Virus record (IMG/VR): IMGVR_UViG_3300038520_002118
Location: 1 to 57,628 of that record
Reading direction: 5' to 3' (one strand)
Source of the DNA: a virus
Taxonomy: Duplodnaviria; Caudoviricetes
DNA: 57,628 nucleotides
Positions 3,525-39,267 of the stretch are shown here, in pieces; positions within the stretch are counted from its first letter, which is position 1; each line of letters begins with the position of its first letter. A model generated the notes under the pieces. That model was not told the DNA's origin and did no database searches. It saw only the letters and a list, made by a program, of their open reading frames with translations. The position numbers and the translations under genes are program-made.

Positions 3525-3940
3525 TATTTACCCTAATACCTGACGATCATGCGTTGATTGTCTGGCCGCAAGTTGCGGATAAGCTGGAGAAAGCAACCAA
3601 AACAACCGATGGACGATTTGATAAAATGTCTATATTGGATGAGTTGCTCGAAAGGAGAATCCAATTGTGGGTTGTATACGAAGAGACAGCCCCTGTAGCG
3701 GCAATAACTACACGCATATTACAGTACAGCCAGTACAAAGCATTATCGATTGACTGGGTTGGCGGTAGCCAGATGAAAGAATGGCTTGATGAGGTGCTGA
3801 AAACTCTCAGGTCATACGCAAAGGATCAGGGATGCAAGAAGCTGGAAGGCCGAGGCAGAACTGGATGGAAAAAGATTCTCCTGAAGAACGGATGGAATCT
3901 TGATTATGTTGCATACGAGGTTGATATAAGCAATGAGTAA
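3521..3940 (+). CDS. GNAT-fold acetyltransferase-like protein
   Basis: LWVV..AAITT..YAKDQGC..GRTGW pattern; precedes internal virion gene. Confidence 0.6.
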   Translation: MIFTLIPDDHALIVWPQVADKLEKATKTTDGRFDKMSILDELLERRIQLWVVYEETAPVAAITTRILQYSQYKALSIDWVGGSQMKEWLDEVLKTLRSYAKDQGCKKLEGRGRTGWKKILLKNGWNLDYVAYEVDISNE

Positions 3941-9400: not shown

Positions 9401-12400
9401 GGGGCCGACACCATTCCTGTGCAGGTAGAGTACAAAGAATTCTACACTCTATACGATTCAGGAAGACTTTTCGGAACTATACCCCGTGGTCAGGATTTTG
9501 ATTTCGAGGGGCTTTCTGCAAAGAGAGATGTATTACAGCAGTATGCCGGTGAAGACTTTCCGTCCGTAGATGGCGAGTCATTCACAGCCACAATTCCTAA
9601 AGGAGTCCCCATCTTCTATAAATTCAGAGATGAATTAAATAAGCTGATCGGCCCCAAGTCTGACCCATTGTATCCAGATGATGCCGAAGGAACGGCAAAG
9701 CTCTCTAAGCGCATGACGCTCGATGAATGGTTGAAGAAATCTGCTATCAAAGAGCCGGTGTACCACGCAACCATTGATTCTTTCCCAGCTCTGAATCCTG
9801 ACGAGACGCAAGACAAGGCTGTGCATTTCGCCCCTGACATAGAGACTACAGATGGCAGGCTCGAAGAAATTTTCCAGCGTGAAGTCGTGCAGGAGCTGGA
9901 AGACGGGAAGGTAATGTTCCCCCGCAGGATCACAGCCAGAATTCAAATGAACAACCCCCTCAGACTGCCATTCGATCTTGGTAACTGGGGAGATGATAAC
10001 TTGTGGCGCTCTGCACTTGAGGATAACTCCTTCATGTTCACCCAGAGATATGGGAAAGAGCGCATGGCGAATATTATTGAGTCGCGCCCTGACATACAGA
10101 AGGTTAAGAAGAAGCTTGCCGAGTATAGGAAAGAATTCCCTAACGAGCCTCTTGATGCGGACACTATTTGGCTAGCCATAGATAGCTCTGGGTTTGATGG
10201 AATCATTTACACAAACATGGGTGAGGGATATGGCGCAGATTCCTATCTGGTGTGGAGTCCTAACCAGATATATGTAGAGGAGATCGAACCTCTCGACTAC
10301 GGTGACTTTGAGTTTGCCTTCCAGTTCGATGACCCCAAAGAAAGCATGACACCCGAAGAACTTGCTGAGGTTTCTACACGGCCAGTTATGGGACTTCAGG
10401 GTAGGTTCTTGAGTCAAGAAGATGTCGGGGAGTTAACAAGAGACAAAGATCTGTTTGACGAAAGGAAGCGGCAGTTCTCAGGTATCAAGGGGACTGAAGA
10501 GATCAGAGATCCTCAGCGGATGTTCTCTCGCAGAACTCCTGTTATTGCTGAAGACAATCCGTTCGACATAGACATGAATAGGACTACTCTTCCTTTGTAT
10601 CCAGATCCTGTAGTGGATGAGAACGGCAAGATTACAGGATACCGTCTAATAAACGGAGAGCAGTTCAAACCAAACTCTGTGAAACTCAAAGACGCTGTCG
10701 CATATCTTGGCCGCAAGGTATCTGATGTTCTGGGTACAACAGATAAGGTTCCTTACACAGATGACAACGTAGAGCCCCTCGCTAAGATCATGGCGACAGA
10801 GGCGGTCAAGGCGCTCGAATCAGACAACAACGCTATTGGCTGGTACGACAAGCAGTTACAAGCCGCAAAGAGAACACTCAGTCTAGTCGAGCCACGTATA
10901 TTCGAGACAGGCAGAGACGAGACAGCTTTCGATTGGGCGCTTGCTGTGACATCAAACGGGCAGGCAGTGACAGATAACTTTGCTTACGCACTTGAGGCGT
11001 TCCGTTTCTACAGAGATAAGGGTAGGTTCCCAGTAAAAGAATGGAAGAAAGGTGGGGACCGAAGGAATCAGATGCAGAGTGCTTTTGTTTTCTTCAATGA
11101 GTATCAGAAGCTGTACGAGGATGGTAGTGTTACCAAGCCAATCGATCAGTTCCTTGACTCACAGTTCACAGTGAAACAACTGCAAGCCGTAGTTGATGAT
11201 ATGAACCAGCGATTCAATACCAAGATCAGCGTCCCAGCGGACGAGCTTGTTGACACTGTGGTGTTCGGTTCATACATCGCAGGTCCCAAGATTGGACAAG
11301 GTTTCTATCAGAACTTGAGGGGTAACCTCGACCCACTCACGATGGATATCTGGTGGATGCGTATGTGGAACCGCTACGTCAATCGCCCTTTCGCAACAGA
11401 GGCAACGCCAGAACAGTTGAGAACACTGCGTGGCAAGATACGGGGCGTCATACAAAACAGTCGTGATGAGGTGATACAGGAAGTAGTGCAGGATGCTTTG
11501 CGGGTTACGGGCATACGCAAGTCCGACCTCCGAAACAACAAAACACTCGACCAGTTTATTCCTGCCCTGCGAAAATCATGGGACAGATACTTCAGGAAGT
11601 TCCAGAAAGAACAAGACCGCAACCCGATCAAGCCTCAATTATTCAAGGATGTGAAGACCCTCGAAGGCAAGCTCTACGGACAGATACAGGCCACGCCAAC
11701 AAATGGCACTGAACGCAACTACATGAGGCGTGTAACCAAGAAAGCACAGGGTTTATTGTCCTCAGTGGGGGTGGACATCGAGACTGCTGACTTACAGGCT
11801 TTGATGTGGTATCCTGAGAAACGTTTGTTCGAGGCCCTTGGTGTCCGCAAGGGAGCAGGACAAGATACAGACTATGCTCAAGCCGCATACGACCAAGCAA
11901 AACAGGAGGGGTATACAGATGAGCAAATCAATGAAGCACTCAGCGATCCAGAAAGAGGATACGTCAGTACTCGCACAGACCCCAGACAAGTTGATGAAAG
12001 AACTGATACTGGGACTGGACAAGCAAGACTCTCAAAAAGGTACAGTGCCTCAGACACAGCGAGACGTGTCGCCAACAGTGCAGGGGCTGATGGACAAGTA
12101 TGGGATGTCTCGCGACAAAGCAGAGGCGTGGACGGAAACAACGTAGTTGCGTCCTACTCAGTAAATAATCTTTTCGCGCCCATGTATCTCATGGGCGACA
12201 TCTCAACCCCAGTCGTTCACGAATTAGAACAGTCAGTATCCTCAGCGGAATACTTCAGATCAAAGATACAGCAGTCCAAGGATAGCAATCCTTACGGTGC
12301 CGCTGTGTATGTGTACCCCGTGATTACAGATCCAGACGATACAGGATATGCAGACATGCGTTTGTTTGTAACAGACGGCGGTAACGCAGGGTTTGCGCTG

Positions 12401-15400
12401 AAGGGCAATGACATTGTGAGCGTGTTCAACACGAGGGGTGGTGGCCTACGCAGTGTTTCGTATCCACTGGTGCGGCTTGCTATCGAACAGGGCGGCAGAA
12501 AGCTGGATGCGTTTGACACGATTCTACCTGAGATTTATTCAGCCAACGGCATGAAGACCGCATCCCGTTTGGTTTGGGACGAGAGACAACGTCCTGAGGG
12601 ATGGCGTGATAATGACTTCATTGAGTTCAACAAAGGGCAACCAGACGTTGTATTCATGTACTACGAGCCTCCTGCCACAGAGTACAAGCCTGACTCTGGG
12701 ACGTATGCTTTGGACTATGCAGAAGCACTTGAGATACAAGACAAGGCTGTACGCGGAATCAAAGACAGGGCTCCTGAAAAAAGTGCAGATGCACTTTCTT
12801 CTGACGGGCCTAATACAATCAGGTTCTCGAAGAGGTTTTCTTATACTGGTACGCCCAACCCTGCGGGCTTCTCATCATTCGTTGACAAAGTCATAGCGAA
12901 GGACGAATCAACAGGTCCCTTCAACGAATTCATGCGTAAGATGTTTGGCGCGGCCAAGGGTGAGACGCTACGAGAAGCGTTTGTACGCAACCATATTAGT
13001 AGGTTTAGTCCGGGCTATAAGCTCGATGATATCGTTTACGGAACGAGTTACAACAACCCTGATTCTGTTGGACGAGCAATGGAAATGTCTCAACAGGTTC
13101 TGGGCCGTATCTACGCACTCATGGAGTTCGGACCAATCAAGGTGGATGCTGACGGCAATGTCGAGCAAGTGTCCGAAGCAGGCGTCAAGGGGCTCAACGA
13201 GATATTCGCGCCACTGCTCGAAGGGCAGACACAGGCGCAAGCAAAAGAGAACGAGCGACAGTTCTATGCCTATGCAATTGCAAGAAGAGAGAAAGCATTG
13301 CGGGCTGTTGGGCGAAGAGGCTTCCAAAATTTAAGTGACGCAGAGATCGATAGGGCAATAGCCGCTGGCGACCCAGCGTTCCAAAAAGTATTCAACGACT
13401 ATCAGAACTTCAACAACTACATGGTTCAGTTCGGCAAAGACTCTGGCTTGTTGAATGATCAAATGGCCGAAGAGTTTGCCAACATGGCTTACGTACCATT
13501 CTATCGTTTGCTTGAGACAGCAGAGGGCGACACAGATTTCTCTAACTCCCTCCCACAGAGAGCGGCCAATAGTTTGATGCAGAAGGGAGCGTTTGATCGA
13601 GAGCTTGTGGGGAGTAACTTCCAAGTCTCGGGCGACTTACTCAAGAACATCTATCGTAATAACGAGATGATCATATCTGCTGGTCTGCGTAATATCGCAA
13701 TGCGTAAAACGTCTGAGGCATTAGAGAAGCTACAAGATCCATCTTGGGGAGAGAAAGCTGACCTCACGAAACCGCAAGGCAACGTCATGAAGTTCAGGGT
13801 CAATGGTGAGCAAGTCGGATATAAGATTCGGGACGGTGCACTGTGGCATGCACTGTCTGGTTTGACACCCCAACAGAAGGATGCATACATCAAAACGGCA
13901 GAGATGTTCGCAAATTTACTGCGAATCGGTGTCACAAATATGCCGGGGTTCATGGTGGCAAACCTTTGGCGTGGAAAAATCGATGCCTACATCAAAGCTG
14001 GTGTTCCAATTGGCTTAGGACCTAGGACATTGAGCCGCATGAACCAGTCCATGAAAGACGGCAAAGATGCAATGGCCATCAAACTTCTCACTGGATTCGG
14101 TGGGTATTCTTTCGGTGCAGATCCAGCAGACTTTGCTTCGACCGCAAGACGGCTTGGCAGAACTGGGGGCAGGATCATACAGAAGGACACACCTGTCGCG
14201 GCTGTCGCCACAGGGTTTAAGAACCTGCTTCAGAAAGTAGAACGATTCGGTGAGTCAACAGAGCTTGAGGTTCGTATCGGTCTGTACCAGAAACTTATTG
14301 CTGAGGGTGTGTCTGAAAGAGAGGCCGCATTCCAAGCGATGAACCTGATCAACTACGGTAGGAAAGGAGCCGGTGGTGGTATCACTGGACAACTACTGGT
14401 CAACCGACTTATCCCTGCAATCCCGTTCTTGAATGCACGTATCCAAGGTCTGTACCGTTTAGCAGAAGATCCAAGGCTACCAGCAGATGAGCGTCAGGCA
14501 TATTGGCAAGGGATAATGAATCGCGGACTTCTTGTGATGGCAGTCTCTACTGCGTTGGGTGCACTGGCGATGTCAGATGATCGCTGGGAGGAGGAGTCAC
14601 TACAGAATAAACTGAACTACGACATTATCTACATCGGTGATTCGGCGATTAAGATACCAAGAGCGTTCGAGCTAGGCGCTATATTCGGAACCTTCCCTGT
14701 ATTCGCGGTAGATGCAATCAGGCAGGAAGATGGTTCTGATTTTGCTATGGCAGTGGCTCACACATTGTTCAACACGTTTGCCTTCAACCCAATACCGCAG
14801 GGCGTGATGCCTGCGTTGGAGGTTGTGACGGGGTATGACTTCTTCAGGATGGCCCCACTAGAGGGCATGGCGCTACAAAGAAAAATGACATCAGACAAGT
14901 TCTATTCATCTACTCCGCATGTTTACCGATTCCTGAGCGAAGCTGGATTGGATAAGTTGACACTGAGCCCTCTAGAGATTCAACAGTTACTTGAGGGATA
15001 CATGGCAGGTCTAGCCACGATCCCAATAGCAATAGCTGAAAGCGTCATGTCTTGGACAGGCGCAGTGCCACAGAAGCCAAATGGCATATTCGGTAATCCA
15101 TATGTCACAGATTTTGGCAGGGTGCTTGGACTGGCAAGATTCATACAGAAAGATGGGGAGACTTCTAGCCAGTTTGTCAGAGACTTCTATGACCTCAGGC
15201 GCGAATCAGATGCTGTGTTCACATCCTATCGTGATGCGGCGGCTACAGGTGATCAGGATCGCATGAACGAGTTACTCGAAGATCGCGGTGTCGCTATGGG
15301 ATTCCGTAAGACGTTCAATCGTGTAGCAAAACAACTGACTGATATCAACAACGCCATGAATAGAATAGTCGAGAGTCCAACCATGTCGCCCACACAAAAG

Positions 15401-15484
15401 ACACAGCAACTCAGGCAACTCAGGATACAAAAGAATAAACTAGCAAGACGCATTGTTGAGCTGGCTGAGAAACAAGGTATATAA
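6470..15484 (+). CDS. Giant polyvalent internal virion protein (zincin-like peptidase, ParB-like, ART-like, HhH-like, GNAT-like, LPD38-like regions)
   Basis: 3004 aa; HETIH..EEEAVAE; IVDGHEGRHR; VYHAT..GFDGIIY..PNQI; GPKIG..TMDIWW..LQALMW; KLDAFD..PDVVFM; C-terminal KIPRAFELG..NPIPQ. Confidence 0.75.
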   Translation: MAFDLSRLRTDQLLKLQGVGGDLTQLSTEELEELLESQEEMSDLGAGFQRAGGSFRQGIAGLLRDIAPEYSEELFESGARAIEETQRQRTPDIPSFKDIEDPLDLIEYTGEQLATSLPQLIAQLGTGAVATRLGGPRVGTAAAIGAGTPFFTGMNIERQIQEQGIDFKEADVAKAFGVSVGQSSLDALIGRYIGVFGPAKAGGEIVKATKAGLGKKVAKGAALGVAVEAPTEAAQQALEIIQAESTLKNGLDRLTSMPPEVQDELLEALVAGGLVGGTIGGAAGPLRPDPPDIAKRRDLEAHLAELRDQVAEDSRNLELFRAEAIERGLIIPPARRLPLFDDSDIVVAAQEKQAEAIREQEEAAVEQEQRQQDAVTILEADNELKAQEQRFNELYEPLIGKKLEEIEIADIEKFVAKDDADQAQLARALDALRAYNTLKAQRARAAKAREAKAKKRQALELQKQSEEETVAARELDEASAQQAKVREEVLQDIIGSSPDVVSVGSEVQLFQTILRNAGMDPTLTATETRLIERRKDFIDPPFVDTRTPEQTKKGQAVGVRESLKRLTSLQSRRLAEANAIQIRANAQEAINLGYTPEFMDRVRNIAKSLRQDLSKIGLEDVALKIGGAVQGDPSIEGMTDVEKDSGRVAISLAAQIYNPQMTDEQLKAKLKEVMNHETIHALRMLGVLTEPEYQSLVKVAKEQAFVDRSGKVRLFSYFERAQELYEGTEALQEEEAVAELFRDWAAGRKKIAGKPLNLFQKIIKFFKGLGKSLDSEQLADANRIFQSIESGEIGSRVRDRKGADALSPMQSRRATADSPAFFNATNKQIEQLIDRYDYPYGTTGYAVRMPIEDFMSLTYGVGKVNKADVKRVAKEFLEDMPSNDGSRMSDLQPVQKRVFDTELDSEAFAEARRQRDRRRARGLEVSDEQFARFDPDKVDNQNYMGVPSLKIIKDINIRKIIVDGHEGRHRTALAAIDGADTIPVQVEYKEFYTLYDSGRLFGTIPRGQDFDFEGLSAKRDVLQQYAGEDFPSVDGESFTATIPKGVPIFYKFRDELNKLIGPKSDPLYPDDAEGTAKLSKRMTLDEWLKKSAIKEPVYHATIDSFPALNPDETQDKAVHFAPDIETTDGRLEEIFQREVVQELEDGKVMFPRRITARIQMNNPLRLPFDLGNWGDDNLWRSALEDNSFMFTQRYGKERMANIIESRPDIQKVKKKLAEYRKEFPNEPLDADTIWLAIDSSGFDGIIYTNMGEGYGADSYLVWSPNQIYVEEIEPLDYGDFEFAFQFDDPKESMTPEELAEVSTRPVMGLQGRFLSQEDVGELTRDKDLFDERKRQFSGIKGTEEIRDPQRMFSRRTPVIAEDNPFDIDMNRTTLPLYPDPVVDENGKITGYRLINGEQFKPNSVKLKDAVAYLGRKVSDVLGTTDKVPYTDDNVEPLAKIMATEAVKALESDNNAIGWYDKQLQAAKRTLSLVEPRIFETGRDETAFDWALAVTSNGQAVTDNFAYALEAFRFYRDKGRFPVKEWKKGGDRRNQMQSAFVFFNEYQKLYEDGSVTKPIDQFLDSQFTVKQLQAVVDDMNQRFNTKISVPADELVDTVVFGSYIAGPKIGQGFYQNLRGNLDPLTMDIWWMRMWNRYVNRPFATEATPEQLRTLRGKIRGVIQNSRDEVIQEVVQDALRVTGIRKSDLRNNKTLDQFIPALRKSWDRYFRKFQKEQDRNPIKPQLFKDVKTLEGKLYGQIQATPTNGTERNYMRRVTKKAQGLLSSVGVDIETADLQALMWYPEKRLFEALGVRKGAGQDTDYAQAAYDQAKQEGYTDEQINEALSDPERGYVSTRTDPRQVDERTDTGTGQARLSKRYSASDTARRVANSAGADGQVWDVSRQSRGVDGNNVVASYSVNNLFAPMYLMGDISTPVVHELEQSVSSAEYFRSKIQQSKDSNPYGAAVYVYPVITDPDDTGYADMRLFVTDGGNAGFALKGNDIVSVFNTRGGGLRSVSYPLVRLAIEQGGRKLDAFDTILPEIYSANGMKTASRLVWDERQRPEGWRDNDFIEFNKGQPDVVFMYYEPPATEYKPDSGTYALDYAEALEIQDKAVRGIKDRAPEKSADALSSDGPNTIRFSKRFSYTGTPNPAGFSSFVDKVIAKDESTGPFNEFMRKMFGAAKGETLREAFVRNHISRFSPGYKLDDIVYGTSYNNPDSVGRAMEMSQQVLGRIYALMEFGPIKVDADGNVEQVSEAGVKGLNEIFAPLLEGQTQAQAKENERQFYAYAIARREKALRAVGRRGFQNLSDAEIDRAIAAGDPAFQKVFNDYQNFNNYMVQFGKDSGLLNDQMAEEFANMAYVPFYRLLETAEGDTDFSNSLPQRAANSLMQKGAFDRELVGSNFQVSGDLLKNIYRNNEMIISAGLRNIAMRKTSEALEKLQDPSWGEKADLTKPQGNVMKFRVNGEQVGYKIRDGALWHALSGLTPQQKDAYIKTAEMFANLLRIGVTNMPGFMVANLWRGKIDAYIKAGVPIGLGPRTLSRMNQSMKDGKDAMAIKLLTGFGGYSFGADPADFASTARRLGRTGGRIIQKDTPVAAVATGFKNLLQKVERFGESTELEVRIGLYQKLIAEGVSEREAAFQAMNLINYGRKGAGGGITGQLLVNRLIPAIPFLNARIQGLYRLAEDPRLPADERQAYWQGIMNRGLLVMAVSTALGALAMSDDRWEEESLQNKLNYDIIYIGDSAIKIPRAFELGAIFGTFPVFAVDAIRQEDGSDFAMAVAHTLFNTFAFNPIPQGVMPALEVVTGYDFFRMAPLEGMALQRKMTSDKFYSSTPHVYRFLSEAGLDKLTLSPLEIQQLLEGYMAGLATIPIAIAESVMSWTGAVPQKPNGIFGNPYVTDFGRVLGLARFIQKDGETSSQFVRDFYDLRRESDAVFTSYRDAAATGDQDRMNELLEDRGVAMGFRKTFNRVAKQLTDINNAMNRIVESPTMSPTQKTQQLRQLRIQKNKLARRIVELAEKQGI
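8870..8889. repeat. Dispersed palindrome site 3, intragenic (core GTGCAGATGCAC)
   Basis: AAAAGGTGCAGATGCACTTT encoding RKGADAL. Confidence 0.75.
12779..12798. repeat. Dispersed palindrome site 4, intragenic (core GTGCAGATGCAC)
   Basis: AAAAAAGTGCAGATGCACTTT encoding EKSADAL. Confidence 0.8.
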
Positions 15485-22534: not shown

Positions 22535-22572
22535 AAAAAAAAAGGCGCTCCAGTCGGGAAACCGGAGCGCCT
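22535..22572 (-). terminator. Intrinsic terminator of minus-strand early operon
   Basis: AGGCGCTCCGG..CTGGAGCGCC followed by T9. Confidence 0.85.
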
Positions 22573-24864: not shown

Positions 24865-25998
24865 TCAGCTTACGCTGACCACATCTCCGAATGGTGCGGC
24901 TGTACCGCCAGTGGATACCCATAGCACCGGATAGTCAGGTGCCTGTGGGAAATCACCTACGTACAGGTCTGTGAAGTACACCATAGAATCGACAGGCAGG
25001 TTTTGCTCATCAATGTAATTGAAGGCAGGTGTGACCCGTGTGCCGCCACGGCCCTTGGCATTGAGTGACTCGATCACCTCACCCTCATAGTACGTAGTCA
25101 CAGACTGTACCTGAGTGTCGCAGGTGATGATCGTCACAGACGTTGGGCACATGTCCTCAGAGATCGCATTCAGCTCACTGAGATACATGTTCAGCTCTTC
25201 CTGCGAAACAGAACAGGAGGAGTCGATCACAGCCACGATGTTGCCCACACCATTGTGTTCGACACTGGGCATGTAAATGCCACAGGAGGCCAGCATCTTG
25301 CGATTGGGCTTCCGCATGGTGTAGTCATCAGGCTGATCACCTCCCACGAACAGACGCAACTTGTCACGCCAGTCAACCTTGTTAGTGGTCAACACATTGA
25401 CCAGTTCATCAAGGCCAGCGGGTATCTTGCCGATATTCTTGGCAGTGGTAGCGGCCTGCATGACCAGACGATTTGCCTGTGCCTCCATCTCCTCAAGCTC
25501 CTCGCCAGTAACAGGCTCACCGTCACTGTTGGTAGGTTGCTTGATATCACCGAACCTCCAGCCCTCGCCCTTAGGACGATCAGCAGTGTTCAGCAGGCGG
25601 GGATAGATTGCCTCAGCCGACATGCCTTTGTACTGCGGATCGAACAAACCCTCAGGCGGCATCTCCAAATCGCTGTCGATACAGATCTGGTTGATGGCAT
25701 AGTCAGTCGCCATGTTCCAGACCTCATGGTCACGTCCATCACACCGCATCGGATGCTTGAGTGCCACATGCATGATCTCATGCACAACCACGAACAGCAC
25801 CTGCTCGAAAGGGAGCCGCATGACAAAGTCAGGATTGTAGTCCACTGTCCTGCCATCGGTGCACATCGTAGGGATTGATGAGTCCTCAATGAACTGCATA
25901 CCCATAGCGATGGCGCCAAAGAATGGATGCTTGATCATCAAGCGGGTCTTGACCCGCGAGATGACGAACTGGGCATCCTGATTGAGTGCCTGAATCAT
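24865..25998 (-). CDS. DUF2201-family metallopeptidase + VWA domain protein
   Basis: TMCTDG, HEIMH (HExxH), D.AIN; MIDAS DSSCS, GRGGT, FTD. Confidence 0.9.
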   Translation of the reverse strand: MIQALNQDAQFVISRVKTRLMIKHPFFGAIAMGMQFIEDSSIPTMCTDGRTVDYNPDFVMRLPFEQVLFVVVHEIMHVALKHPMRCDGRDHEVWNMATDYAINQICIDSDLEMPPEGLFDPQYKGMSAEAIYPRLLNTADRPKGEGWRFGDIKQPTNSDGEPVTGEELEEMEAQANRLVMQAATTAKNIGKIPAGLDELVNVLTTNKVDWRDKLRLFVGGDQPDDYTMRKPNRKMLASCGIYMPSVEHNGVGNIVAVIDSSCSVSQEELNMYLSELNAISEDMCPTSVTIITCDTQVQSVTTYYEGEVIESLNAKGRGGTRVTPAFNYIDEQNLPVDSMVYFTDLYVGDFPQAPDYPVLWVSTGGTAAPFGDVVSVS

Positions 25999-27050
25999 GA
26001 TGCTTTCTCCTCGAGTACCAGAAGCTTCGCGTCACCAGTAAGCCAGTCACGCACCTCTTTGACATCGTGAGCCCACTTGCGGATCTCAGCCTTGCCATTG
26101 AGATTGACCACGGTCTTCATGGCGAACGCACTGTACTCCTGCGCTGGGATACGGTTGATGAACCGAACCAGATTGGCAGACGTGGACTTCTTGACCCGAT
26201 AGGCAAGGGATGCACACAGGGCATATGCCATTGCAGGCTCAGAAGGGATCTCAGCATTGTCTGGATCAGTGAACGGGGCATCGATGTCAGGCATCGCATC
26301 ACACATTTGCAGGTGCACCTCGAACATGGCCGTAGTGCCCTCACCCAGAGTCCCGCACAAAGCGATGTGCTGGGCCATTGGGCTCAGCTTCCAAGACAGG
26401 ATCTGGTGAGCCTTCTCCCAAGAGCGAGGGGATGGACATGCATTCACGTCCTTGTCGAACTTGGACAGGTGCTCAGGCTGGAAGCGCAGGAAGCTTAGGA
26501 TGCGATTGTCGATACCATTGGTTGCCATGTACTGGAGCGCATCATCAAGGTCAGGCACGATGGTGATGTGCAACAGACGATCCTTGAGGTGAGAAGGCAT
26601 GGCGTTGGTACCAGCACGATGGTGCATCTGGTTGCCAGCACAGACCACAGTCCAGCCGTCAGGCAGAACGTGCTCACCGATACGGCGCTCATTGACTAGT
26701 TGACCAATGATGTTCTGGTTGGCCACAGGAGCCTGTGGCAGTTCATCCACGAACAAGATACCGACACCCTCAGTGGGCAGATACTGTGGACGCAGACGGA
26801 TCATACGATCACCCTGAGCCCAAGGCAGACCGCCCAGCTCACCAGCGTCATACTGGTTGGCACGGAAGTCCATGAAGCTGATCCCCATGTCCTGTGCCAA
26901 AGCCTCGACAGATGCTGTCTTACCAGCACCAGCCACACCCCAAAGCATCGGGGTCACGTACTGGCTTGAACGGCCAGTCAATTGCTGATTTGCCAGAACA
27001 CTGGCGCGAACGATTTCCACAGCAGTGGATAGGTTTGTAGTTTGGTTCAT
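25995..27050 (-). CDS. MoxR/AAA_5-type AAA+ ATPase
   Basis: GVAGAGKT Walker A, ILFVDE Walker B, AGN sensor I, SPRSW. Confidence 0.9.
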   Translation of the reverse strand: MNQTTNLSTAVEIVRASVLANQQLTGRSSQYVTPMLWGVAGAGKTASVEALAQDMGISFMDFRANQYDAGELGGLPWAQGDRMIRLRPQYLPTEGVGILFVDELPQAPVANQNIIGQLVNERRIGEHVLPDGWTVVCAGNQMHHRAGTNAMPSHLKDRLLHITIVPDLDDALQYMATNGIDNRILSFLRFQPEHLSKFDKDVNACPSPRSWEKAHQILSWKLSPMAQHIALCGTLGEGTTAMFEVHLQMCDAMPDIDAPFTDPDNAEIPSEPAMAYALCASLAYRVKKSTSANLVRFINRIPAQEYSAFAMKTVVNLNGKAEIRKWAHDVKEVRDWLTGDAKLLVLEEKAS

Positions 27051-27071
27051 TGTTACTCTCCCATTGGAAAA

Positions 27072-27091
27072 AAAAGTGCACATGCACTTTT
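27072..27091. repeat. Dispersed palindrome site 10 (core GTGCACATGCAC)
   Basis: Between element C and RBS of AAA gene. Confidence 0.9.
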
Positions 27092-27092
27092 C

Positions 27093-27146
27093 CGGTCAGT
27101 CAGACCGATCATGCACACCACAGGGATGTGCATGGGCAGGTGACTG
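27093..27146 (-). ncRNA. Repeated intergenic structured element, copy C
   Basis: CAGUCA CCUGCC [CAUGCACAUC CCUGU GGUGUGCAUG] AUCGGUC UGACU GACCG. Confidence 0.75.
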
Positions 27147-27148
27147 GA

Positions 27149-27742
27149 TTAGTCATCAAGGGTATCGAGCATCGCGTCAACATCATCAGCGACAGCGTCA
27201 CCCCTTGCCTTTGCCGCCTCCTCAGCGGCCTTGTCCTCCTGCATCTCGCGGACTACCTCAAGCAGGCGATTGTACTCAGCCTCATCGAGCTTGAGGATTT
27301 GCTCAGCCAGCTTGTGGACCTTGTCCGCTTCAGGCTTGAACTTGTCAACCAGCTTGCCTTGTGAGGTGATACCAGCGGCATCCAGAGTCAGGGCGACAGA
27401 CACAGAGTCTGTGCACTCCATCAACTCAGGCATGACAGGCAGAAGCTTCTGCACGTTCTCTGAGTAACGCTTGACGTTGGAACCGGAGACACCGGCATCC
27501 TCAAGCTGTTGACGCAGAGCCTCCATGACCTTGACAGGAAGACCTTTCTTCTTGCCACGGCTGACCAGCTTGACGCCAGACACAGCGATGTCAGCAATGA
27601 TGTGCTGGTAGGCAGTCATGACCGCCTCCTGCCGCTCATTTGAAAGATCAGCCGCCTTGGCCTTGAGGCCTTGCTCCGCAGAGATAGCCTGTGCAATTTC
27701 AGTAGCTGAAGCGAGAGTGAATTGTACTTTTGAGTTTGCCAT
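27149..27742 (-). CDS. Hypothetical helical protein
   Basis: Start MANSKV after GGAGGG RBS; Ala-rich. Confidence 0.8.
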   Translation of the reverse strand: MANSKVQFTLASATEIAQAISAEQGLKAKAADLSNERQEAVMTAYQHIIADIAVSGVKLVSRGKKKGLPVKVMEALRQQLEDAGVSGSNVKRYSENVQKLLPVMPELMECTDSVSVALTLDAAGITSQGKLVDKFKPEADKVHKLAEQILKLDEAEYNRLLEVVREMQEDKAAEEAAKARGDAVADDVDAMLDTLDD

Positions 27743-27775
27743 GGGAAATCCCTCCATATTGGCTTGGTTTGAAAA

Positions 27776-27830
27776 CGGTCAGTGTGACCGATACAGCGCA
27801 CCACTGGGATGCGCTGAGGCAGGACACTGA
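27776..27830 (-). ncRNA. Repeated intergenic structured element, copy D
   Basis: UCAGUGU CCUGCC U[CAGCGCAUC CCAGU GGUGCGCUG] UAUCGGUC ACACU GACCG. Confidence 0.75.
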
Positions 27831-28061
27831 TTAGGCTATGACTCCCAGACCATCGCACTCTAGCGCCACGAATGTGAACGCCTTTGCGTCCGACAGTGTC
27901 GGGAAGATGCAGTACTCTGAGTAGGATGATCTCCAACCTTCTTGGTCAGACCCGTAAACGCCCGCCTTGTAGATTTCAAGACGGCCATTCGATGCGTCCC
28001 AGTCATGGTTGATGACCTCATAGATTCCTGAATCAATACGCTTGAGTTTGAGTGTTTTCAT
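27831..28061 (-). CDS. Hypothetical protein
   Basis: Start MKTLKL after GAGGAG RBS; FPTLSDAKAF motif. Confidence 0.7.
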   Translation of the reverse strand: MKTLKLKRIDSGIYEVINHDWDASNGRLEIYKAGVYGSDQEGWRSSYSEYCIFPTLSDAKAFTFVALECDGLGVIA

Positions 28062-28071
28062 GATTGTCTCC

Positions 28072-28392
28072 TCAGGAGTAGTCAGGTGTGACGATCTGTT
28101 CAGCCACAAGCGCCTTGATCACAGCGCTTTGAAGCTCATGACGAACCTTGTGGGCACTGGCAGAGACACGCTTACGGCCATAGCCATTTGGGTTCTTGAT
28201 AGTTGCTCCCCCCAGTTTGAAAGCGTGTTGGAAGTCCATCATCCCGTACTTAGCCTTTGGCTGAAAGCCATCATCAAAGGTGCCTGCAACCTGATAGGTG
28301 CGGCGATTGGGAAGAGTGACAACCGCATGGAAAGAAGTGAATCCTTCAAACGGCTTGAGCTCAGTGATGGTGGTTGATGCATAATCAGTCAT
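28072..28392 (-). CDS. Hypothetical protein (first gene of early operon)
   Basis: Start MTDYAS after GAGG RBS; the longer 203-aa track ORF lacks an RBS. Confidence 0.7.
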   Translation of the reverse strand: MTDYASTTITELKPFEGFTSFHAVVTLPNRRTYQVAGTFDDGFQPKAKYGMMDFQHAFKLGGATIKNPNGYGRKRVSASAHKVRHELQSAVIKALVAEQIVTPDYS

Positions 28393-28958
28393 GATAGTTT
28401 CCTCTGTGTTTCGCGGATACTGCCGCACATCAGTGACGCTGGTAGCGCCAGACACAAAGAGGCAGGCATTCCAACCCGCCTCGACACGAAAACCCCGAAC
28501 CAACTTGCAAGCGCTCAGGGTAGTTCCAACATTGACGAATGACTCAGTACAGGGCACTGCTGGTCTCACTTGGTCAGGGTCACCCCCCAACGCATCCGAT
28601 TCACACGATCTGCTTGCCAGCTTGGCACAGGCACCGCCTGTCACCGTCTCCCATCTCTCGCAGTTCCTGCGGGCGACAATCACACCGAAATGGGTAGCGT
28701 GATCGCTTGTAGCCGTTCTGCGTCAGGTCTGGTATGACCGATGGTCTGCCAGCTCACCGACTCGCCTGAAATGGCGTGGGCCTGTGTGGGAGTCCGTGAT
28801 GTCCACTGAGTGGAGGCATCAGGGCTTGGCCATGGCCAGCATAGGATCGCTCCACTAAGCTGGTTGGTCAGTCAACATAGGATCGCTCCACTAAGCTGAA
28901 TGACCGGCCCTCTCCGGCCCAAGGTGCGAATCCCAGATCGGGTAGAGCACCTTTCGAT
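28393..28958 (-). ncRNA. Candidate large structured leader RNA (~565 nt)
   Basis: Promoter upstream, no credible ORF, about 10 hand-paired hairpins, tandem GCGA-loop hairpins, 8-bp loop pseudoknot. Confidence 0.55.
28840..28898. repeat. 23-bp perfect direct repeat x2
   Basis: CATAGGATCGCTCCACTAAGCTG at 28840-28862 and 28876-28898. Confidence 0.95.
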
Positions 28959-28964
28959 TTGCCA

Positions 28965-28993
28965 ATTGAACCACAGGTAAAAACAGATAACAA
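28965..28993 (-). promoter_or_regulatory. Putative early sigma-70 promoter
   Basis: TTGTTA-17 nt-TTCAAT with TG extension and upstream T tracts (UP-like). Confidence 0.55.
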
Positions 28994-29060
28994 CACCTAT
29001 CGGCAAAAAAAAGTAAAAAAAGTTCATACGCCCAGAAAGTACACTGGTTGCAGGGATCAA

Positions 29061-29080
29061 AAAAGTTCACATGCACTTTT
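29061..29080. repeat. Dispersed palindrome site 11 (core GTTCACATGCAC)
   Basis: In divergent gap before TerS; half-site AAAAAAAGTTCATA at ~29015-29028. Confidence 0.9.
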
Positions 29081-29120
29081 TCAGCGCCCGAAACATTACC
29101 GCTGAGTAGAAGGGGATACA

Positions 29121-29594
29121 GTGGAAAGACTACAGGTGATCGCAGGCCAATCAATCAAGGGAGGCCTTACAGCCAAGCAGGATGCATTCGCTCAGGGCGT
29201 GGCAAACGGACAGACACTCAGCGAGGCATACAGGGCATCGTACAGTGCTGAAGGCATGAAGGACTCCAGCGTGTGGACAGAGGCCAGTAAGCTGATGGAT
29301 AACCCCAAGGTCTCCCAGAGGGTGTTATCGATTCAGAAGGCTCAGGAAGACAGGACACTGCATGATCAGGCTCGTTTGAAGAGATTGGTGCTGGAACGGC
29401 TCCATGCTGAGGCCATGCAGGCTGAGTCTGACAGTGCGCGGATCAGGGCTCTCGAACTGCTTGGTAAATCGATCGCCATGTTCACTGATCGGGTGGAGCA
29501 GGACGACACCAGCCGGAGTGCCGGAGAGATCGAGACAGAGCTCCAGAAGAAACTGGCTGACCTAGCACAGCGCTACGGGGGTACTGGTTCGTGA
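29121..29594 (+). CDS. Terminase small subunit
   Basis: LTAKQDAFA..SEAYRASY..ASKLMDNPKV..RALELLGK. Confidence 0.75.
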   Translation: MERLQVIAGQSIKGGLTAKQDAFAQGVANGQTLSEAYRASYSAEGMKDSSVWTEASKLMDNPKVSQRVLSIQKAQEDRTLHDQARLKRLVLERLHAEAMQAESDSARIRALELLGKSIAMFTDRVEQDDTSRSAGEIETELQKKLADLAQRYGGTGS

Positions 29595-29768
29595 TCTGGC
29601 TATCTGGCTGACCCCACCCACGGGGCACCCCCCTGCGCGGTCGTGGTGCACTGGCCGTACTACACACACTATTCCACACACCCAATCACAACACTTTCAT
29701 AAACCCCTTTTTTGCTATGGTTTATCGGATACTCTGCCTGAAGTAAGGGGTAGGGTACCCCCATAAAG

Positions 29769-29812
29769 AAAAAGCCCCGTAGAGAGCCTTAGAATCGCTC
29801 TGAAGGGGCTTT
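29769..29812 (-). terminator. Possible bidirectional terminator
   Basis: AAAAAGCCCC..GGGGCTTT inverted repeat between convergent genes. Confidence 0.5.
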
Positions 29813-29863
29813 GTGAATTGCGCCAAGGAACCATAAGCGCGGATCATTCTATTTATTAGCTAA

Positions 29864-30010
29864 TCACAGGTCCTTTGTCATCATTTCTAGCTGACGTTTA
29901 TGGACTTCCCTCAGGATACCAGAGTTAGCTATGTGATTTTCTGCTCTTGACAGTTGTGAACACTCGATAGCACGTCCCATAAGTTTGAAGAAACGAACAA
30001 AACTCCTCAT
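29864..30010 (-). CDS. 48-aa protein (not in ORF track)
   Basis: MRSFVRFFKLMGRAIECSQLSRAENHIANSGILREVHKRQLEMMTKDL; ATGA-coupled, GGAG RBS. Confidence 0.55.
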   Translation of the reverse strand: MRSFVRFFKLMGRAIECSQLSRAENHIANSGILREVHKRQLEMMTKDL

Positions 30011-30144
30011 TTCTTCTCCCCAGAGTACTTCTCTAGCTGATCAACCAACTGTGTTAGTGCATTTTCCCACTGATTTAGCGCCCATACAGTGTTCGTGCGG
30101 GCAACATTGAAAGATTTTGATACGAATTGCTTGAACTGCTCCAT
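30007..30144 (-). CDS. 45-aa amphipathic helical protein (not in ORF track)
   Basis: MEQFKQFVSKSFNVARTNTVWALNQWENALTQLVDQLEKYSGEKK; AAGGAG RBS. Confidence 0.6.
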   Translation of the reverse strand: MEQFKQFVSKSFNVARTNTVWALNQWENALTQLVDQLEKYSGEKK

Positions 30145-30155
30145 GTTCATCTCCT

Positions 30156-30211
30156 TTGTGCGGTGCAACATAGAGCAATCTTAGCATACTACTTTGTGCT
30201 TAGTTTATCGA
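30156..30211 (-). promoter_or_regulatory. Promoter plus TGC-N3-GCA (PhaR-like) box
   Basis: TCGATA-17 nt-TATGCT, then TGCACCGCACAA immediately before the RBS. Confidence 0.45.
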
Positions 30212-30349
30212 CTTCCCACCGAAGGAGAATTACGCGCCTCTCAAGTGAAGCAATCTTCTTGTACTTACGATCTAGGGACTTCTGAAGGAGGTTTAGCCAC
30301 GCAAGCTTAACCTTGTATACAAATGAGTTCATAATAAATATCCTGTTGC

Positions 30350-30411
30350 CTAAGGTATACCTTAGTGGTTTTATTATAGGAAGGTTTACCTTACTCTAGG
30401 TAAACCTAGAG
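30350..30411. repeat. Cluster of three AGGTWWACCT palindromes
   Basis: CTAAGGTATACCTTAG, AAGGTTTACCTT, CTCTAGGTAAACCTAGAG. Confidence 0.8.
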
Positions 30412-30455
30412 GGTAATTGTACCAGTGAAATTTTGTACTCGCAACGGAGGATAGA

Positions 30456-30599
30456 ATGATTAGGGCATACGCTGTAATTTTATTTGTTTTTGGCGCCACT
30501 GCCGGGGTTGGTTACTTCATGTCTGATGAGAGCAGGAACATAGGCTTCACCAACATCTGCGGGGAAGATAAATATTTTTGCACGAAGGATAGGTCATGA
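30456..30599 (+). CDS. 47-aa membrane-anchored protein (not in ORF track)
   Basis: GGAGG RBS; MIRAYAVILFVFGATAGVGYF..C..C; ATGA-coupled. Confidence 0.65.
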   Translation: MIRAYAVILFVFGATAGVGYFMSDESRNIGFTNICGEDKYFCTKDRS

Positions 30600-30817
30600 A
30601 AAAATTAATGAGATTCTTAGACCCGGCTCACAATGCACTTAAGGATTCGCCGCCGGAGTGGAAGTTTCTTGCCTCTATCGTACTAGCCACCTTTTGGTGC
30701 TTGGCGTTTGGCATCACAACCGGAGAGCTTTTGTTCATCGGATACAGCATCATAGGGCACTACGCGATCCTCTTCTGCATATTCTTGACTTGGAGCGTAT
30801 TCCGCCAAACAAGGTGA
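30596..30817 (+). CDS. Small 2-TM membrane protein
   Basis: Two hydrophobic segments. Confidence 0.7.
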   Translation: MKKLMRFLDPAHNALKDSPPEWKFLASIVLATFWCLAFGITTGELLFIGYSIIGHYAILFCIFLTWSVFRQTR

Positions 30818-30846
30818 AATGGGACTTAAACAAGGAGGCGTAGCCA

Positions 30847-30866
30847 AAAAGTGCATGTGAACCTTT
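30847..30866. repeat. Dispersed palindrome site 12 (core GTGCATGTGAAC)
   Basis: Lies over the -35 position of a TGCTACAAT extended -10 at 30872-30880. Confidence 0.85.
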
Positions 30867-30961
30867 TCTTGTGCTACAATAAAACCGTATTGCGCTCTCC
30901 TCCCGATTGTAAGCAAGACATGAGGGGCCCTTCGGGGCCCCTTCCCTACGCAAGGTAATTC

Positions 30962-31213
30962 ATGGCTGATATCATTAAGTTTCCCGGCGAAGAAACATTT
31001 CTTGAGCTAGACCCGAAAGAGATGTTAAGAAACGCGATAGACGAATATGATTTTGACAAGGTGATCTTGATAGGCACCGTCACTAAAAAAGATGGCAAGG
31101 GAAGAGCACTAGGTTCAGATCTAACGATATGCACTTCCACCAGCGATACAGCAGAGATAGTATTCCAGATTGAGATAGCCAAGAAGGCCCTTCTGGATGG
31201 AACAGAGTACTGA
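30962..31213 (+). CDS. Hypothetical protein
   Basis: ORF overlapping TerL start; preceded by UUCG hairpin 30922-30943. Confidence 0.7.
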   Translation: MADIIKFPGEETFLELDPKEMLRNAIDEYDFDKVILIGTVTKKDGKGRALGSDLTICTSTSDTAEIVFQIEIAKKALLDGTEY

Positions 31214-37849: not shown

Positions 37850-38758
37850 ATGGCTATTACTCGCGCCCAACTCCTCAAGGAGTTATTACCGGGCCTTAAT
37901 GCATTGTTTGGTCTTGAGTACGACAAGTATGAAGACGAACATGCAGAGATCTATGAAACAGAAAGTTCAGAGCGTTCTTTCGAGGAAGAAGTTAAGCTCT
38001 CAGGCTTCGGTGCCGCACCGGTCAAGCCAGAGGGAAGTGCGATTTCCTACGATAATGCTCAGGAATCTTTCACTGCTCGTTACAACCACGAAACAGTTGC
38101 GATGGGTTTCTCCATTACTGAAGAGGCAATGGAAGACAACCTGTATGACGCCCTGTCTGCTCGGTACACAAAAGCACTTGCTCGCGCAATGGCTTACACC
38201 AAGCAAACAAAAGCGGCTTCTCTGCTGAACACAGGTTTCGACACATTCCAATCTGGGGATGGCGTAACTCTGTTCAACACAGCGCACCCAACTGTTGCTG
38301 GCGGTAACAACCGTAACCGTCTTTCTACAGACTCTGACCTCAATGAGACTTCTCTTGAGCAGGCTGTGATCGACATCGCGGCTTTCACGGATGAGCGTGG
38401 TCTTCTGATCGCGGCACGTCCTCGTAAGCTGATTGTTCCACCTGCATTGATGTTCGTTGCAACTCGTTTGCTCGAATCAGAACTGCGTACCGGAACAGCC
38501 GACAACGACACAAACGCATTGCGTAACAATGGGTCCATCCCAGAGGGATATCGCGTCAATCACTACTTGACTGACAGCGATGCCTTCTTCTTAGTGACAG
38601 ACGTTCCTAACGGAATGAAGCACTTTGAGCGTACTCCAATGCAAACGTCTATGGACGGTGATTTTGATACTGGCAATGTTCGCTACAAAGCTCGCGAGCG
38701 TTACAGCTTCGGCGTCTCAGACCCACTAGGAATCTTCGGATCGCCCGGTGCGTCTTAA
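37850..38758 (+). CDS. Major capsid protein
   Basis: MAITRAQLLKELLPGLNALFG..KLIVPP..ERYSFG; followed by strong terminator. Confidence 0.88.
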   Translation: MAITRAQLLKELLPGLNALFGLEYDKYEDEHAEIYETESSERSFEEEVKLSGFGAAPVKPEGSAISYDNAQESFTARYNHETVAMGFSITEEAMEDNLYDALSARYTKALARAMAYTKQTKAASLLNTGFDTFQSGDGVTLFNTAHPTVAGGNNRNRLSTDSDLNETSLEQAVIDIAAFTDERGLLIAARPRKLIVPPALMFVATRLLESELRTGTADNDTNALRNNGSIPEGYRVNHYLTDSDAFFLVTDVPNGMKHFERTPMQTSMDGDFDTGNVRYKARERYSFGVSDPLGIFGSPGAS

Positions 38759-38811: not shown

Positions 38812-38821
38812 CATCCTGACA

Positions 38822-38841
38822 AAAGGTGCATGTGCACTTTT
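38822..38841. repeat. Dispersed palindrome site 14 (core GTGCATGTGCAC)
   Basis: AAAAGGTGCATGTGCACTTTTT after terminator. Confidence 0.9.
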
Positions 38842-38868
38842 TGACACTGGCCAAGACAGGAGATTTTC

Positions 38869-39267
38869 ATGGCTAATACAACTTTTAGTGGAGCAGTCCG
38901 CTCCGAAAACGGATTTGTATCTGTAACAAAGAACGCAACCACAGGGGCGTTCACAACAGGTACCACATATTCAGATATCATCACAGGTAGCGTTCAGTCA
39001 TTGTCTGGCGCTGGCGCAGTCAACATTACTGATCTGATCACAGAGGTGACCACTACCGGAGCAAACGCACTGACGTTAGCTAATGGCGCCACAGGGCAGG
39101 TTAAGATCATCACAATGGTCACTGATGGTGGTGATGGAACCCTCACTCCAACAACTCTTGCTGGCGGTACAACCATCACGTTCAATGACGTTGGAGATGG
39201 TGTTGTGCTTGTTTACGGTTCAGCAGGCTGGGTGGTTGTAGGAAACAACGGCGCTACGATTGCGTAA
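38869..39267 (+). CDS. Putative virion structural protein
   Basis: MANTTFSG start, T/G-rich beta composition. Confidence 0.65.
   Translation: MANTTFSGAVRSENGFVSVTKNATTGAFTTGTTYSDIITGSVQSLSGAGAVNITDLITEVTTTGANALTLANGATGQVKIITMVTDGGDGTLTPTTLAGGTTITFNDVGDGVVLVYGSAGWVVVGNNGATIA

Follow-up and report, generated by a model that had tools for sequence, protein, structure and literature searches.

The conserved block and its promoter

The window analysed here is the complete record of a tailed virus (Caudoviricetes), IMG/VR IMGVR_UViG_3300038520_002118, at its full length of 57,628 base pairs (bp). Its large terminase is 52-57% identical to those of the Pelagibacter phages HTVC027P and HTVC023P, phage 023Pt_psg01 and the lake phage DSL-LC04. 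The element under study lies in a 728-bp gap, with the small terminase gene on one side and a leftward operon on the other. We conclude that this gap very probably encodes a genuine, uncatalogued structured RNA of about 500 nucleotides (nt) on the minus strand, which starts a few bases past a sigma-70-type promoter (28993-28965) and makes up the first 500 nt of a 6.4-kb leftward operon. The features of the locus, in the window's own numbering, are the following (relatives are cited by their L numbers).

28988-28993, minus strand: -35-like hexamer, read from the sequence; a -35-like hexamer also stands at the aligned place in relatives
28965-28970, minus strand: -10-like hexamer, imperfect in the window, 17 nt after the -35
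28458-28958, minus strand: conserved structured RNA block of 501 nt, defined by BLAST boundaries, covariation and G.U asymmetry, with no Rfam match
28393-28457, minus strand: spacer and ribosome-binding region of the downstream gene, outside the RNA block; present in L011, which does not carry the RNA, and absent from L017, which does

A sequence-only reading had placed the two hexamers at 28993-28988 and 28970-28965, spaced by 17 nt, and the first start codon supported by a ribosome-binding site at 28392; all of these coordinates proved right. It had further taken the whole leader of about 565 nt as a candidate RNA, of which the block 28958..28458 is borne out by conservation, while the last 65 nt (28457-28393) go with the downstream gene.

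Structural covariation among relatives

The folding energy of the window sequence was analysed together with the pattern of substitutions among relatives. The minimum free energy fold of 573 nt reached -228.4 kcal/mol, against -215.4 +/- 7.4 for shuffled sequences (z = -1.76), and 6 of 100 shuffles folded at least as well. Single-sequence folding, which had been proposed as a check, is therefore unremarkable; the homologues, however, covary, so the RNA is not refuted by this outcome. The RNAalifold consensus of five sequences contained 156 pairs, 21 of them with compensatory double changes, and that of six sequences 149 pairs, 25 of them with double changes. For counting, we used the six-sequence fold with one never-varying helix exchanged for the pseudoknot of the sequence-only reading, which gave 151 pairs in 27 helices, pseudoknot included, over six distinct sequences.

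Within this structure, 97.7% of 864 cells were paired, compared with 92.1 +/- 0.6% in shuffles, and none of the 500 shuffles reached that value. Pairs that had changed on both sides and were nevertheless kept numbered 26 of the 151, against 13.2 +/- 2.3 in shuffles (again reached by 0 of 500). Controls in which partners were slid by 1-3 columns showed 33-38% pairing and 1-4 double-change pairs, a comparison that favours the structure to some extent, as it was derived from the same sequences as were counted. The G.U cells numbered 90 and the A.C cells 2; therefore, selection acts on the minus-strand transcript.

Coding potential

The protein-coding reading of the block was rejected on account of stops in all frames, indels of one or two nt and the lack of a three-base periodicity. 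All six frames of five full-length sequences contained 4-9 stops, and those of the shorter L046 1-7; seven 1- or 2-nt indels separated the sequences, and the substitutions between the window and L014 were spread over the codon positions as 26/24/29. A 33-codon open reading frame (ORF) starting with GTG is open in five of the six sequences, and all seven of its codons that differ between the window and L009 are changed non-synonymously. The sequence-only reading had named translation and conservation of a 203-amino-acid (aa) ORF at 28072-28683 as an argument against an RNA. This ORF is not conserved because its upstream half belongs to the block, which is followed by other genes in the relatives L017, L009 and L012. 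Taken together, the covariation, the strand asymmetry of the G.U pairs, the absence of a conserved frame and a conservation that is both discrete and modular support the earlier proposal of a large functional RNA.

Boundaries of the conserved unit

The block behaves as a unit with sharp edges. Exactly 28958..28458 is 90.1% identical in L009, L010 and L016 by BLAST. In L009 the next gene is 84% identical and the adjacent terminase protein only 46%, against 90% for the RNA block. Identity of the block among relatives amounts to 84-94%, while the neighbours diverge or are swapped. In L017 the match extends from the terminase side as far as 28458 and resumes at 27830, with two genes skipped, and the 3' end of the block is thus the same there as in L009, L010 and L016. 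In the alignments, conservation sets in abruptly at 6-8 nt beyond the -10 and ceases a few bases past the hairpin that a terminator scan flagged at 28482-28459. The unit would thus extend from the transcription start to the 3' hairpin, with transcription itself deduced from these sequence features. The 65-nt spacer at 28457-28393 travels with the downstream gene and not with the RNA.

A strict consensus promoter scan of 27800-29700 found no site; it missed the promoter of the RNA because the -10 of the window lacks the A at position 2. A consensus-type -10 stands at the same aligned place in four relatives (L017, L009, L046 and L012), and the conserved block starts 6-8 nt after the -10 in every variant. 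On the minus strand from 28958 to 22572, the same strict scan, which had missed the RNA's own promoter, listed no other promoter-like site.

Parts of the RNA

The consensus fold was divided into the following parts, given from the promoter-proximal end.

28921-28953, minus strand: P1, promoter-proximal hairpin (helices 2 and 3) with an invariant 4x4 internal loop and a 3-bp apical stem; 3 double-change pairs
28835-28905, minus strand: twin hairpins (helices 5-8), each with a GNRA tetraloop, which are the two copies of a 26-nt direct repeat
28794-28824, minus strand: hairpin of helix 10, in the 5' insertion domain; outer pair changed from U-A to C-G between the window and four relatives
28763-28776, minus strand: P3 hairpin (helix 11); G-C to C-G in L014/L015, with a counterpart in L012 and L128
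28722-28761, minus strand: P4/P5 nested helices (12-14), core of all variants
28659-28714, minus strand: middle domain, a long hairpin (helices 15 and 16) and a small hairpin (18); most variable part, with two sequence types
28687-28694, minus strand: 5' strand of the pseudoknot (helix 17, 8 pairs), in the loop of the long hairpin
28650-28657, minus strand: 3' strand of the pseudoknot (helix 17)
28492-28648, minus strand: 3' domain (helices 19-26); most sequence-conserved part, with long invariant unpaired stretches
28459-28482, minus strand: terminal 9-bp hairpin with a weak U tract at the 3' edge of the block; terminator-like in the scan

The letters of the P1 internal loop were invariant in all seven sequences compared, which represent four variant types. 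The three double-change pairs that P1 shows by itself across these types were reached by 193 of 500 shuffles and are not significant. The direct repeats lie at 28837-28862 and 28873-28898, 36 nt apart, and the pair next to the tetraloop changes on both sides, from A-U to C-G in one copy and from U-A to A-U in the other. These twin hairpins belong to a 135-nt insertion, the whole of which is absent from the L046-type and L012-type variants. Two of the GNRA loops are thereby accounted for; the fold includes three. Tandem repeats of type III antitoxins (ToxI-like) have a period of about 36 nt and adjoin the gene of a toxin endoribonuclease, and such an antitoxin was considered for the repeats. 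It was rejected, as the 36-nt-spaced copies are hairpins within a larger fold, carry compensatory changes and are missing from two variants; Rfam gave no match, and no search was aimed at toxin genes.

The middle helix of P4/P5 shows A-U instead of G-C in L046 and yet another pair type at the corresponding position of L012. Double-change pairs are frequent in the middle domain, with five of nine in helix 16 and two of five in helix 15; as this domain exists in two sequence types, these changes may stem from few events. The pseudoknot that the sequence-only reading had drawn between 28694-28687 and 28657-28650 was confirmed, with 48 of 48 cells paired and one pair that is U-A in two sequences and G-C in four. 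RNAalifold offers an alternative, in which part of the 3' strand pairs with 28538-28533; this helix never varies, so covariation has no purchase on it. Most of the remaining helices that had been paired by hand recur in the RNAalifold consensus, most of them with compensatory changes. The exception is a short hairpin at about 28617-28630, which fails: a G-to-A change in four of six sequences covaries instead with the long-range partner in helix 21, which pairs 28621-28617 with 28563-28559.

In the 3' domain, helices 20, 21, 22 and 23 contribute one double-change pair each, and most other columns are invariant in all six sequences. One hairpin tip in this domain holds a 6-nt palindrome, and in L012 the domain of the window type is replaced by unrelated sequence. 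The terminal hairpin passes a loose terminator scan with a 9-bp stem and five T in eight positions, and the relatives have fewer U directly after the stem. The clear terminators of the genome (22572-22543; 15505-15489) carry 6-8 U.

Relatives, variants and distribution

Relatives were gathered through the 106-aa protein encoded downstream (4 loci) and through DNA words of the region, and membership was decided by nhmmer with the family profile. Members were identified in 11 viral contigs: L009, L010/L016, L013, L014, L015, L017, L045/L122, L046, L047, L068 and L012. A 15-nt conserved word occurred in 106 stretches of viral contigs, mostly by chance, and the real ones by nhmmer were the known members plus L045, L046, L047 and L068. 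The core motif marked 14 stretches in viral contigs, among which L119-L121 were rejected as chance matches within coding sequence. Of the 119 core-motif stretches listed for metagenome contigs, at least three (L221, L185 and L128) are real members. None of the 108 such stretches in genome contigs was real by nhmmer, and for this reason no prophage copy and no host were found. The word of the L012 variant matched only L012. Small-terminase relatives numbered 434, and of the best 80 loci, nine carried the RNA, all on contigs already in the member set.

The members fall into three architectures, the window type, a short-5' type and the L012 type. The short-5' type is represented by L046 and four identical copies; here the 135-nt twin-hairpin insertion has given way to other hairpins, about 70 nt in all. 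The L012 type, to which the partial L128 also belongs, is about 320 nt long and keeps P1, P3 and the equivalent of P4/P5; a tetraloop caps the next helix where the window type has the insertion. Its 3' part is unrelated and strongly structured and runs into the ribosome-binding site of a 200-aa gene with no closing hairpin. The 321-nt leader of L012 folded with z = -3.18, and none of 100 shuffles folded as well. The gene behind the block is the 106-aa gene in the window and L014, and the 200-aa gene in L017 and L012. The RNA is thus modular: a promoter-proximal core (P1 and P4/P5, about 100 nt by itself) is present in all variants, the 135-nt insertion is optional, and the 3' domain of about 220 nt with its closing hairpin is exchangeable.

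The closest relatives that do not carry the RNA have other, unrelated leaders of 270-500 nt at the same place, with no ORF of at least 60 aa. Two such long leaders, with no RNA of this family, stand behind a similar promoter in L361 (the same as L011; 2080-2440, minus strand) and L359 (490-690, minus strand), and L011 shares with L009 the promoter and the first four transcribed bases. The leaders in L011 and L359 may be further, unrelated leader RNAs.

Comparison with known RNAs

Searching the whole window with Rfam 15 (4227 models) at gathering thresholds gave no match in the block. At E<=10, the region 28000-29400 gave three weak sub-threshold matches, all outside 28458-28958. The Rfam search advised by the sequence-only reading accordingly showed no GOLLD, ROOL, OLE, intron or other family in the block; the models for GOLLD, ROOL, OLE, group I and II introns, 6S, RNase P and riboswitches are expected to be in the set, the output carrying no list of models. 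ARAGORN found no tRNA or tmRNA genes in the window, and blastn of 28000-29600 against 50,697 phage records gave no match. No description of such an RNA was found in the literature, which does not prove its absence from print; the word phage does not occur in the main text of a preprint that clusters prokaryotic intergenic regions. We therefore regard the RNA as a new family of a known general kind, that of large structured phage RNAs or leaders, with a narrow distribution.

A structured-RNA survey of IMG/VR (Fremin et al., 2023) also used covariation in intergenic regions, and describes candidates of 29-151 nt (PMC10690425). Its source collection and method are the same as for the RNA described here, and the 500-nt RNA as a whole falls outside its size range; fragments of it might be listed among its candidates.

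Several known systems invite comparison. The put RNAs of the lambdoid phage HK022 act in cis and bind the zinc-binding domain of the beta-prime subunit. They are about 70 nt long and consist of two stem-loops and a triplex; putL is described as lying just after an early promoter, folding as it is made, staying with RNA polymerase and needing no phage protein, and put as suppressing pausing and both intrinsic and Rho-dependent termination (PMC9378689). Like putL and putR as portrayed there, the core of the present RNA comes directly after a promoter and heads a long operon: the block starts 6-8 nt after the -10, and the operon runs to 22543. Unlike put, at about 70 nt in the same account, it has about 500 nt, 27 helices and a pseudoknot, and the likeness is one of description rather than of compared sequence or structure. 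BoxA/nut leaders of ribosomal RNA operons and lambdoid phages are promoter-proximal RNA signals that load host Nus factors and render the polymerase resistant to Rho and terminators (PMC10250234, PMC3177189), BoxA being an 8-nt single-stranded signal recognised by NusB-NusE (PMC3177189). The 5' strand of P1 begins with five letters matching the BoxA core as given there, about five of eight positions in all, which lie partly inside a helix and partly in the internal loop. This resemblance may be due to chance, and no N-like protein was found.

A further comparison is with large ornate RNAs, some of them phage-borne and of unknown function, which are described as forming RNA-only homo-oligomers (PMC12286853). 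The present RNA resembles GOLLD, ROOL and OLE in that it is several hundred nt long, intricately folded, conserved by covariation and carried by phages, as some of them are. It differs from them in that it is not a free-standing gene but opens a protein-coding operon at position +1, and in its narrow range of 11 viral contigs.

A different kind of parallel is given by ColE1 RNA II. This folded transcript is about 550 nt long and comes from a sigma-70 promoter, and the way it folds determines an event downstream on the DNA that encodes it. RNA II forms a persistent hybrid with the DNA and primes DNA synthesis. Unlike there, no sign of hybrid formation, of an antisense partner or of an origin was seen here.

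Genome setting

The neighbouring features are listed below.

29121-29594, plus strand: small terminase subunit (Pfam Terminase_2 1.4e-07, phrog_51 5.3e-16), divergent from the RNA
29061-29080, no strand assigned: 20-bp palindrome between the terminase gene and the RNA promoter, 1 of 11 copies in the genome
28072-28392, minus strand: gene of 106 aa without a family, the first one behind the RNA in the window; relatives 87-92% identical
22543-22572, minus strand: strong intrinsic terminator with a 13-bp stem and then 8 U, closing the leftward operon headed by the RNA

The small terminase gene adjoins the RNA in all loci that reach that far. On the other side, the 106-aa gene is followed by ORFs of 76 aa and 202 aa (no family) and then by an AAA ATPase and a DUF2201 metallopeptidase/VWA protein. 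The 106-aa, 76-aa and 202-aa proteins had no Pfam or PHROG family, and an Atlas search with the 106-aa and 202-aa proteins gave no informative match; hence, no partner protein could be proposed for the RNA. The AAA ATPase (phrog_1297) and the DUF2201/VWA protein occupy 24865-27083 on the minus strand; the PHROG label 'HNH endonuclease' of the latter looks misleading, as Pfam shows no HNH domain. The operon leads toward replication and recombination genes, including a primase-helicase, a Sak annealing protein and a PD-(D/E)XK nuclease. It is about 6.4 kb long and ends at the terminator at 22572-22543, and a terminator scan of the minus strand from 28459 to 22572 listed no further terminator-like site. 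The cumulative GC skew has a local minimum at 28-29 kb, where the two directions of transcription diverge.

Different genes of the leftward operon are separated by copies of an intergenic linker of 55-67 nt that contains a small hairpin (27776-27833 in the window; 3240-3291, 3693-3759 and 4537-4591 in L009). The linker is up to 97% identical across phages, follows directly after the RNA in L017, L009 and L046, and looks like a recombination boundary or processing site. The palindrome upstream of the RNA promoter is one of eleven copies of about 20 bp, whose 18-bp cores start at 903, 12780, 15543, 22311, 24838, 27073, 29062, 35172, 44156, 49517 and 56107. Several copies lie at gene boundaries, one of them just before the ATPase gene, and the half-sites vary independently (G or T at one position). 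This pattern suggests that the copies are operators for a dimeric DNA-binding regulator and not RNA-level hairpins or terminators.

The sequence-only reading had described the genome as tightly packed elsewhere, which does not hold for 29595-31196. This stretch of 1.6 kb between the small and large terminase genes contains no ORFs other than small ones of 31-67 aa, most of which lie on the opposite strand, and is an unusual interruption of the terminase pair. The GC content falls to 0.44 at 30-31 kb, and a copy of the recurring palindrome-like motif is found at 30846-30867. Elsewhere in the genome, the sole Rfam match is the Mu-gpT-DE RNA motif at 38814-38871 (plus strand; 50.2 bits against a threshold of 49), just downstream of a Mu-gpT-like major capsid gene (37850-38758). 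A 3004-aa ORF at 6470-15484 (plus strand) has LPD38 (large polyvalent protein-associated) as its only Pfam match, at residues 2703-2857.

Expression

Sequencing runs contained only small shares of the words of the RNA. In two metatranscriptomic libraries from two studies, contigs 90-95% alike matched only 28663-28935 within 26500-31000. As these runs were picked by the RNA's own words, consist of contigs rather than reads and may include DNA, the ends, strand and level of a transcript are not readable from them, and they are a weak hint of expression at most.

Mode of action

Our favoured interpretation, to which we assign a probability of roughly 0.35, is that the RNA acts as a co-transcriptional leader in cis and carries RNA polymerase through 500 untranslated nt into the operon. 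The core would fold on leaving the host RNA polymerase and act on the elongating complex, either by itself, as HK022 put does, or through host elongation factors that it recruits. As a result, the polymerase would read past the weak 3' hairpin, avoid Rho-type termination along the 500 untranslated nt and so reach the replication-type genes downstream; the 3' domain may carry a second function. Of the roles that the sequence-only reading had suggested (antiterminator, anti-defence decoy or scaffold), an antiterminator-like leader would suit the place at +1 of the operon promoter. This proposal is supported by the position of the block at +1, by a common core that is promoter-proximal and by downstream genes that differ among variants. 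It is also in line with a closing hairpin whose U tract is poor compared with those of the genome's terminators, and with the lack of that hairpin in L012. Several points weigh against it. The cis-acting antiterminator RNAs known from the sources cited above are far smaller (put has about 70 nt, and the present RNA is about seven times larger), and 500 nt with a pseudoknot and GNRA loops exceed the needs of an antiterminator. The best-conserved part is the 3' domain, farthest from the promoter, which fits action in trans better, and the block closes with a hairpin, as a self-contained RNA gene would. Nor did the scan list, within the operon, any terminator for the polymerase to overcome, and the failure to find another promoter is weak evidence, as the strict scan also missed the promoter of the RNA. 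The transcription start, the 3' end and the read-through are all predicted from sequence. The covariation count comes from six distinct full-length sequences only, and L014 and L015 are near-identical; several covarying pairs, common to the same two sequence types, may reflect few events.

Nearly as likely, and thus also tentative, is a stable RNA that acts in trans in the manner of GOLLD, ROOL or OLE, being freed at the 3' hairpin by termination or processing and then working as a scaffold, as a particle that assembles itself or as a decoy for a host factor, with the operon transcribed by read-through. The size and complexity of the RNA (27 helices, the pseudoknot and three GNRA loops) speak for it, as do the exact end of the block at the hairpin in three kinds of junction and the near-invariant 3' domain with its long unpaired stretches and palindromic hairpin tip. 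The block is also better conserved than the neighbouring proteins, and large phage-borne ornate RNAs that form homo-oligomers exist (PMC12286853). Yet the L012 variant retains core and position although it has neither the 3' domain nor the hairpin; the U tract is weak, there is no evident partner protein, as the adjacent genes vary and have no family, and the GOLLD, ROOL and OLE models gave no match. Action in cis and action in trans are not exclusive, as a leader can be processed into a stable RNA. An ordinary 5' untranslated region, which would protect the operon mRNA from RNases or tune the translation of the first gene in the manner of a riboswitch or thermometer, is unlikely. It would account for the position ahead of the first gene, for the strong structure that the 321-nt L012 leader also has (z = -3.18) and for the 270-500 nt devoid of ORFs of at least 60 aa that relatives lacking the RNA still have there. 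The first gene, however, differs among variants, which makes control of one particular gene unlikely, and the block stops 65 nt before the start codon and excludes the ribosome-binding site; moreover, no riboswitch family matched, and 500 nt is very long for a stabiliser.

The two remaining explanations have little to recommend them. We consider it quite improbable that the transcript is a replication pre-primer or origin transcript, that is, a persistent RNA-DNA hybrid near the divergent promoter region that primes as ColE1 RNA II does. The RNA does lie at the divergence point, where the cumulative GC skew has its local minimum (28-29 kb), it heads an operon toward replication and recombination genes, and its length is near that of RNA II. 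The skew minimum, however, simply tracks gene orientation; no iterons or AT-rich unwinding element were seen downstream of the RNA, and phages exchange the module without regard to their replication genes. Least probable of all, and hardly tenable, is that the block is not an RNA but an element acting as DNA (a packaging site, an origin or an operator cluster) or a coding stretch that includes the 203-aa ORF. Its place beside the small terminase gene, the two 26-nt direct repeats and the two ORFs that can be drawn, of 203 aa and 33 codons, are what such a view could build on. Against it stand the 90 G.U to 2 A.C cells and the compensatory changes throughout. The direct repeats form hairpins, in which compensatory changes are seen, and the L046 and L012 variants do without them. 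Indels and stops break the frames; in the 33-codon ORF all seven codons changed between the window and L009 are non-synonymous, and in relatives other genes follow the upstream half of the 203-aa ORF.

Implications

Beyond the favoured cis-acting leader, a bolder possibility, which we rate as rather doubtful, is that the RNA represents a new class of large phage RNA that would reprogram host transcription alone. Its core would ride RNA polymerase as put does, and the exchangeable 3' domain of about 220 nt would contribute another activity of RNA alone, such as self-assembly via the palindromic tip or the capture of a host factor. To our knowledge, only a handful of structured RNAs of unknown function reach 400 nt, among them GOLLD, ROOL, OLE and HEARO, and each of them has proved mechanistically unusual.

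The RNA is experimentally approachable despite its uncultured host, as it has clean boundaries, its own sigma-70-type promoter, a covariation-backed fold that includes a pseudoknot, and natural domain-swap variants. A construct of promoter, RNA and reporter can be placed in a model bacterium or transcribed in vitro. Surveys restricted to motifs of up to 150 nt can miss large RNAs of this size in viral metagenomes. If the core acts on RNA polymerase, RNA-only antitermination would reach beyond the put elements of lambdoid phages, and if the RNA acts in trans, it would be a new member of the small set of large, ornate RNAs carried by phages. Should the bolder possibility be true, this would be the first large modular RNA of such a kind in the uncultured aquatic relatives of HTVC023P-type pelagiphages.

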